From Candidatus Pacearchaeota archaeon (lineage in GTDB: Archaea; Nanobdellota; Nanobdellia; Pacearchaeales; GW2011-AR1): DNA of 44,665 nt. The position numbers were made by a program, and so were the translations under genes. Numbering within the stretch: the first letter of the stretch is position 1; every line of letters starts with the position of its first letter. The stretch covers positions 1 to 44,665 of the forward strand of contig VGKP01000006.1 of the NCBI GenBank assembly GCA_016866975.1, given 5' to 3'. This document shows, piece by piece, positions 6,869 to 7,198 of the stretch. The notes under the pieces are model-generated. The model saw only the letters and a program-made list of their open reading frames with translations. It did no database searches and had not been told where the DNA came from.

Positions 6869-7198
6869 ATATACTTTAGACCAACACTCTGGAAAACACT
6901 TATTTCCGTAGTTTTAGGGCTGATTATTGGACTTTTTATCGAGAGTTCAATAGTTGGTTATTATTATGGTGCTGAACTAGATTTCTCATATAACTTAAAA
7001 CATTGGATTATAAGATTAATTCCAATATTTTTATGTCAAGGAACTTGACTAAAACTCCAGCTTTTAAGCTGGAGTTGTTCCTTGAGCATCCAAAAAACGA
7101 GCGCCTGCAACAAACTGCGGCTTTTAAGCCGCAGTGGCGCATCGTTTTTTTGATTTTATTTTATTTGGAGTTTAATCCAAAGGAAAGATAAAAATTAA
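6869..7198 (+). pseudogene. Disrupted paralogue of the intron-encoded membrane protein
   Basis: Removing 7035-7154 gives (I)YFRPTLWKTLISVV...IPIFLFYFIWSLIQRKDKN* (69 aa), matching MNFKPRIWKTLMSIV...VLFLIYIIWSLIQKKQ. The start codon position is ATA. Confidence 0.85.
7035..7154 (+). mobile_element. 120-nt structured mini-element, copy 1 (probable non-autonomous IS200/IS605 derivative)
   Basis: Inserted 3' of TTTAT with no target duplication; ends in TGAT; two CTTnnAAG-capped hairpins; homologous copy at 34049-34166 with compensatory changes. Confidence 0.85.

Follow-up and report, generated by a model that had tools for sequence, protein, structure and literature searches.

The window analyzed here, the whole 44,665-nt stretch of contig C6 from genome G000, belongs to a Pacearchaeota-type DPANN archaeon with an 805-kb genome (31 contigs, 39% G+C, 89% complete), a placement consistent with the database names attached to close relatives of its transposases. 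Two plus-strand copies of a short repeat were found in it: copy 1 (7035–7154), a 120-nt member of subfamily A that interrupts a frame for a small membrane protein (6854–7034 plus 7155–7195), and copy 2 (34049–34166), an intergenic 118-nt member of subfamily B. Both copies are preceded by TTTAT, start with GTC, end in TGAT, and are built of two similar halves. The putative target and left cleavage tetranucleotide, TTAT, lies at 7031–7034 (plus strand) for copy 1, where it consists of host-gene bases that are retained in the restored frame, and at 34045–34048 (plus strand) for copy 2. In each half, a four-base guide adjoins the 5′ side of a 7-bp hairpin capped by CTTTTAAG, CTTTCAAG, or CTTAAAAG, and the hairpin stems of the two copies differ by compensatory changes.

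Copy 1 comprises a left end, a 4-nt linker, and a right end. Its left end (7035–7087), delimited by folding and covariation, is a two-tier hairpin in which a lower stem (7035–7044 paired with 7077–7087) with a one-sided 5′ bulge (7045–7054) precedes an upper hairpin (7055–7074; CTCCAGC TTTTAA GCTGGAG); the left guide AAAA occupies 7051–7054 (+17..20) and complements the target TTAT by the IS608 rule set out below. The right end (7092–7150) is likewise two-tiered, with a lower stem (7092–7105 paired with 7136–7150), a bulge (7106–7114), and an upper hairpin (7115–7134; CTGCGGC TTTTAA GCCGCAG), and its guide CAAA (7111–7114) complements, by the same rule, the putative right cleavage tetranucleotide TGAT that forms the final 4 nt of the element (7151–7154). 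The corresponding parts of copy 2 are the left guide AAAA (34063–34066, +15..18), left hairpin (34067–34086), right guide CAAA (34123–34126), right hairpin (34127–34146), and TGAT (34163–34166). An initial annotation of this DNA had described a mini-element of about 120 nt present twice in the window, located 3′ of TTTAT, ending in TGAT, with left guides at +17..20 and +15..18 and a CTTnnAAG-capped hairpin with compensatory changes in each half, and all of these features were recovered as described.

At its start, the window also carries the 3′ part of a type-2 IS200-group element (1–224, plus strand), which is cut by the contig start and lies approximately 400 nt upstream of a 16S rRNA gene. 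This piece encodes the C-terminus of a tnpA gene (stop codon 190–192), followed by a right end with the guide GATG (192–195), a hairpin (196–216), and TCAC (221–224). The gene that copy 1 interrupts has a paralogue at 4797–5009, inside an approximately 850-nt insert of the LSU (23S) rRNA gene (2670–6513).

Mini-element copies were counted by blastn against the whole genome, which revealed 47 full-length copies (27 of subfamily A, 120 nt, and 20 of subfamily B, 118 nt), with identity within each subfamily mostly at 98–99%. Approximately 15 further copies are longer, modular, or partial, many of them at contig ends. Beyond this genome, the mini-element family was found in 13 of the genus's 16 other genomes, and it extends to some further genera of the same taxonomic family. 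No Rfam family fits the mini-element, and among the matches listed for a 14-mer from its left end in the genome contig collection, almost all were chance matches to unrelated bacteria.

The tetranucleotide that precedes the element is TTAT in 36 of 45 readable copies and fits TNAT in 44 of them, against a background in which TTAT makes up 0.85% of genome tetranucleotides (enrichment p ~2e-66). Positions −4, −2, and −1 of the target are almost invariant, while position −3 is loose in this genome, being other than T in 8 of 45 copies (~18%). At the opposite end, the final tetranucleotide is TGAT in 43 of 46 copies.

Excision of 7035–7154 in silico yields a single open frame (6854–7195), to which copy 1 adds two stop codons. 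The restored frame is 31% identical to the paralogue at 4797–5009 (E 2.5e-8), and the alignment runs gap-free through the junction IPIFL/FYFIW (a slash here and below marks the insertion point or element boundary), with a sole gap of 6 residues approximately 30 residues upstream. Another copy (C25:5965–6084) splits a Nudix gene, and its removal gives the junction QGKPAKFN/FLVYIFEA, identical to that of the orthologues in G016 and G010, two other species of the genus. Across the genome, deleting a copy restores 23 frames of at least 90 codons, including frames of 509, 510, and 538 codons; therefore, the element inserts in genes and disrupts them. For the insertion at C1:102327, the single orthologue is only 39% identical, and its alignment has a 1-residue gap located 3 residues from the junction. 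No target duplication was observed at the empty sites of copy 1 and the Nudix gene, where a 2-bp AT ambiguity remains, and a 2-bp AT duplication is compatible with these sites because flank and element both end in AT. The initial annotation had claimed that removing copy 1 restores the gene in frame, with no indel relative to the paralogue, and had proposed to look for empty sites and for TTAT in front of further copies; the gap-free alignment through the junction bears out the first point there, both the paralogue and the Nudix orthologue comparisons give exact empty sites, and the further copies follow TTAT or TNAT, as counted above, without duplication. Logan contigs from four lake-water runs, inspected over C3:33083–53082 (nine copies), contained no joint skipping 118–120 nt in an assembly format that cannot show rare variants, and over the same region they contained no circle junction, the only long joints being two in number, one of them between repeat copies.

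As single-stranded DNA, each half of the element folds into a lower stem and an upper hairpin, with an 8-nt bulge between them on the 5′ side whose last bases are the guide. The DNA fold is computed at −42 to −44 kcal/mol, compared with −15 for shuffled sequences (z = −10), and the bottom strand folds equally well because the structures are DNA palindromes. Across a structure alignment of 13 diverged copies, drawn from 11 of the genus's genomes, 95% of cells are paired, compared with 38–50% in slid controls, and 19 of 40 pairs are changed on both sides; compensatory changes occur in each of the four helices, upper and lower stems alike. Palindromes with covariation thus stand near both termini, as hairpins at +21..40 and +81..100. 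In the right end, 20 nt separate the putative cleavage site from the hairpin foot. At both ends, the putative cleavage site is placed at the foot of a conserved lower stem, so that these stems must open for the bulge guide to reach its tetranucleotide. A terminal mini-hairpin, GTCAAG-nnn-CTTGAC, that would join target and guide was also considered and set aside as speculation, since some relatives lack it and it shares bases with the lower stem.

The arrangement of guides and tetranucleotides was compared with that of IS608 of Helicobacter pylori, a member of the IS200/IS605 family (Barabas 2008; He 2011, PMC3201880; Morero 2018, PMC5934647). In IS608, the four bases 5′ of each hairpin read the cleavage sites, with C at −3 pairing with guide base 1, T at −4 pairing with guide base 2, and A at −2 left unpaired; the distance to the hairpin foot is 19 nt for TTAC, on the 5′ side of the left hairpin, and 10 nt for TCAA at the right hairpin (He et al. 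2011, PMC3201880). This register predicts AAAA for TTAT and CAAA for TGAT, and both window copies and both subfamilies carry these guides. The IS608 rule and positions had been used in the initial annotation in a form that agrees with He et al. 2011 (PMC3201880). Like IS608, the mini-element inserts 3′ of a tetranucleotide, has a 4-nt guide at the 5′ hairpin foot in a common pairing register, shows an invariant A at −2, and is strand-biased in orientation; the left guide is found at +17..20 or +15..18, compared with +16..19 in IS608. Unlike IS608, it is gene-less, uses TTAT/TGAT instead of TTAC/TCAA, encloses each guide and hairpin within conserved lower stems, and is known here from sequence alone. 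The 20 nt between its right hairpin foot and the putative cleavage site are twice the roughly 10 nt seen in IS608 and in both the type-1 and the type-2 element described below.

Guide and target were then related across genomes, using pattern searches for mini-element relatives with six free flank bases. Among 103 copies with the left guide AAAA, position −3 is T in 88, G in 6, A in 5, and C in 4, while among 11 copies with CAAA, recovered from six genomes, it is G in 8 (six TGAT and two TGAG), A in 2, and T in 1. G at −3 therefore accompanies 8 of 11 CAAA guides vs. 6 of 103 AAAA guides (Fisher p 8e-7), and this shift from C guide to G at −3 is clear and comes from independent insertions. Eight copies with the guide TAAA show A in 2, G in 2, and T in 4 (p = 0.08 for A alone, p = 0.011 for A or G), which suggests a weaker covariation signal for the T guide. 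No shift to TCAT was seen with the guide GAAA, where C at −3 occurs in 0 of 6 copies (T in 4, G in 1, A in 1), and G·T wobble or post-insertion mutation could account for this. The statement in the initial annotation that the ends fit the code exactly thus holds for AAAA/TTAT and CAAA/TGAT in both window copies, while across the family it must be relaxed for the loose position −3 (~18% non-T) and the unshifted G guides. The code also fits every IS200-group element of the lineage that could be bounded (types 1 and 2). These patterns indicate that the DNA-guided target code known in vitro for IS608 also operates in uncultured DPANN archaea, and that one-base guide changes in a naturally occurring passenger family redirect new copies to other landing sites.

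The copies are also unevenly distributed between strands. Neighboring copies on the same contig are co-oriented in 36 of 42 pairs (p 1.4e-6), with C3 carrying its 12 copies exclusively on the minus strand and C2 its 7 exclusively on the plus strand. The top strand coincides with the locally G-rich strand in 49 of 65 copies; relative to genes, 36 of 65 copies are co-oriented, as expected by chance. This strand bias would fit insertion into the lagging-strand template. Insertion into the lagging-strand template has reportedly been observed for IS608 and ISDra2.

The 120-base repeat is a genuine mini-transposon of the IS200/IS605 kind that carries no genes and has been active recently. In our preferred reading, which we consider highly probable, it is a non-autonomous IS200/IS605 PATE that consists of a left and a right end only and is mobilized in trans by a Y1 (HUH) TnpA. 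TnpA would bind both upper hairpins on the top strand, and the guides AAAA (left) and CAAA (right) would pair with the TTAT flank and the TGAT 3′ end, respectively, with guide base 1 opposite −3, base 2 opposite −4, and base 4 opposite −1. The top strand would then exit as a circle in which TGAT is joined to GTC, leaving the donor resealed exactly (“peel and paste”), and the circle would insert, without duplication, 3′ of a new TTAT in single-stranded lagging-strand-template DNA. The initial annotation had arrived at the same interpretation, a minimal non-autonomous HUH-transposase element made of left and right ends; its predictions at the level of the sequence all agree with what was found, and the cleavage reaction, the circle, and the choice of driver are inferred.

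Candidate drivers were sought among the resident Y1 transposases. Matches to Y1_Tnp (PF01797) occur at three places in the genome (C10:194–541, window 1–153, and the end of C12), and a TnpB search of the genome returned nothing above the cut-off. The type-1 TnpA (C10:122–589) is intact and 155 aa long, contains the C10:194–541 match (77 bits), and matches solved TnpA structures, IS608 among them at E 1.5e-10. The ends of type 1 were bounded from the relatives P0103 and P0117 (17 places, 656 nt), in which the left end reads TTAA / 12 nt – AAAT – (CCTTGGC TTTCAA GCCAA-G), with the hairpin enclosed by the lower stem CCGTAA/TTACGG (here the slash separates the two strands), and the right end reads GAAG – (CCTTGCC TTTTAA GGCAAGG) – AGCAG – TCAC /; both fit the guide rule. 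The type-1 copy of this genome spans a contig junction (C21:130–161 joined to C10:1–616) and is approximately 670 nt long, with a left end TTAA / TTGAGAAG – AAAT – (CT(A)CCAGCC TTTA GGCTGGAG) and a right end GAAA – hairpin – AGGATG – TCAT /. A type-1 relative in G009 pairs GAAG with TCAC, compared with GAAA and TCAT in this copy, a further instance of guide covariation. In the resident copy, the 21 nt directly 3′ of the left hairpin are identical to the right tail of the mini-element, including TGAT, and this left end looks like a master/passenger recombinant. A left boundary for this copy after a TTAT located 28 nt before the hairpin was rejected, since relatives in multiple contexts give 12–16 nt, after TTAA.

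Type 2 is represented by the piece at the start of the window and by a second C-terminal piece at the end of C12. Its ends, bounded from P0122 (10 places), read TTAT / TCTTTCGT – AATA – (CCCTAAGG CTTG CCTTAGGG) on the left and GATG – hairpin – ...TCAC / on the right, and they also fit the rule. A blastn search with both window copies against 27 Y1/TnpA loci of the genus gave no match and thus no autonomous element with mini-element ends. Type 1 has in common with the mini-element the hairpin stem length, the GC-TTTnAA-GC cap, the left lower stem, the guide rule, and, in this genome, the 21 nt described above; it differs in encoding TnpA, in its right spacer of 9–10 nt, and in using the target TTAA (guide AAAT) and the end TCAC or TCAT (guide GAAG or GAAA).

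On these grounds, the type-1 TnpA appears to be the most likely driver, clearly ahead of that of type 2. A type-2 driver (window 1–224 and the C12 end), with the mechanism otherwise unchanged, is unlikely, though it deserves more weight than any of the alternatives to the mechanism itself: type-2 relatives insert 3′ of TTAT, the very target of the mini-element, and at least two type-2 copies are present in the genome, each at a contig end, suggesting that type 2 was active recently. However, target choice in the IS200/IS605 family depends on the guide rather than on the protein, and for this reason type 1 is favored despite the TTAT target held in common by type 2 and the mini-element. The hairpins point the same way, as those of the mini-element (7-bp stem, TTTnAA loop, TTTTAA in the window copy whose stems are given above) match type 1 and not type 2, whose 8-bp G+C-rich stem carries a CTTG or TCTTG loop, and no sequence is common to type 2 and the mini-element. 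Outside this genome, no Y1 genes were found in the same-genus assemblies G005, G008, and G016 (62–91% complete) despite many copies of the mini-element; in such genomes, for example G008 (10 contigs, 89% complete, with retargeted sublineages), the copies might be driven from outside the cell’s chromosome, which we regard as quite unlikely.

In a related species, the type-1 tnpA is a pseudogene (L048, G009:C123), split by an approximately 175-nt relative of the mini-element that starts with GTCAAGAAT and ends with GTTCTTGAC; its flank, ATAT, misfits the apparent guide.

The insertion mechanism itself was weighed against other types of repeat. Were the repeat a classical MITE mobilized by a DDE transposase, it would comprise GTC...TTTG, flanked by a 2-bp AT duplication within the target TNAT, and the empty sites fit this equally, given that the left flank and the right end both close in AT. 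Nevertheless, we find this highly improbable. Terminal inverted repeats are absent, the 5′ end GTCAAGGAAC and the 3′ end CGTTTTTTTGAT giving no inverted match, and copies after non-AT flanks still have the TGAT end (C4:39731 after TTCT; G008:C7 and C8:30839 after TGAG). The TG before the AT is kept in the same 43 of 46 copies, and strand bias together with hairpin ends typifies the IS200/IS605 family. Position −3 covaries with an internal base 17–20 nt away, which argues against a 2-bp-duplication DDE MITE because −3 lies outside any AT duplication.

Equally hard to credit is a REP/REPIN-type repeat that is kept by a domesticated RAYT-like Y1 protein rather than carried as a transposon passenger. 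The element is indeed a short high-copy hairpin repeat in a genome with a Y1 protein, and the resident type-1 tnpA adjoins an element-like tail, but its two hairpins follow each other in direct rather than inverted order, copies insert within genes and inactivate them, the 4-nt target is clear and the cleavage tetranucleotides are defined, and the Y1 genes reside in bounded insertion sequences in many contexts. Least credible of all is a structured RNA gene, an RNA-level intervening sequence (120 nt being 40 codons), or an attC-like Xer/integron-like recombination site, which the strong conserved structure with compensatory changes might recall, but which does not accommodate equal folding of both strands, the lack of an Rfam match, the 118 nt of subfamily B (not whole codons), the two stops that copy 1 puts in the host frame, insertion in either orientation relative to genes, the absence of attached cassette genes, or TTAT targeting and guide covariation, which have no place in such models.

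The non-autonomous IS200/IS605 reading places the mini-element next to the PATEs of Haloquadratum walsbyi, gene-less elements related to the IS605 type (Dyall-Smith et al. 2011, PMC3119063), and the PATE-like elements described in Geobacillus (Meers et al. 2023, PMC10055086). All four PATE criteria of Dyall-Smith et al. 2011 apply to it, among them palindromes near both termini and a length (118–120 nt) that is too short for a transposase gene. As in PATEs, there are no inverted terminal repeats, palindromes stand near both ends, and no target is duplicated; the element is too short for a protein, is present in many near-identical copies, and has ends related to those of the IS605 type, and small palindromic modules are nested in its end hairpins, as SMR-A elements are in PATEs. 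It differs from PATEs in its host, a DPANN archaeon with a 0.8-Mb genome, in its length of only 118–120 nt, in its two-tier bulged hairpins at both ends with the guide in the bulge, and in autonomous relatives that are tnpA-only (IS200 group), with no TnpB found. Our literature search found no description of such elements in DPANN archaea. The mini-element does not represent a novel category of mobile DNA; both PATE-like elements and the guide code were established before, and it adds a clear new example to a known kind. New here are the guide/target covariation, the exact code-compliant ends of two resident transposase elements, and the link to type 1. Its approximately 50 exact insertion boundaries are useful for annotating very small genomes, whose assemblies and genes the element breaks, and it offers biochemistry a very small natural substrate (118–120 nt, with both ends and both guides) together with two candidate TnpA proteins.

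A further reading concerns the ends themselves, and we regard it as quite unlikely: that the two-tier ends are a functional variant of IS200/IS605 ends within a self-contained 120-nt DNA-guided module that evolves its specificity apart from the transposase. The functional variant is suggested by the need to open the lower stems at the cleavage sites and by a right spacer of twice the usual length; the self-contained module is suggested by the change from AAAA to CAAA, which moves TTAT to TGAT, and by a target that differs from the TTAA of the likely master. The lower stems could be a built-in excision switch, or they could allow extrusion of the ends from duplex DNA, independent of replication.

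Several variant copies were also recorded. The longer variants in G000 (C2:40336–40556, C13:7454–7674, C3:37448–37668, C2:79280–79449, C24:4549–4717, and C8:1–126) contain extra modules of 50–51 nt, each made of two perfect 8–9-bp mini-hairpins; one module lies between the element ends and one within the right-hairpin loop, which recalls the SMR-A elements that insert into Haloquadratum PATE palindromes. At C3:4292–4462 (minus strand), a head-to-tail pair was found in which a type-B copy directly follows the TTAT end of a shortened relative, an arrangement that is expected if the element’s own 3′ tetranucleotide can serve as a target. A third type of right end, with the hairpin CCACACTC TTCA GAGTGTGG and the end GCTTTTGAT, is joined to a type-A left end at C8:15351, C8:20884 (minus strand), C9:20892, and C2:94237, and left and right halves also occur separately in relatives; ends therefore appear to have been exchanged between mini-element sublineages.
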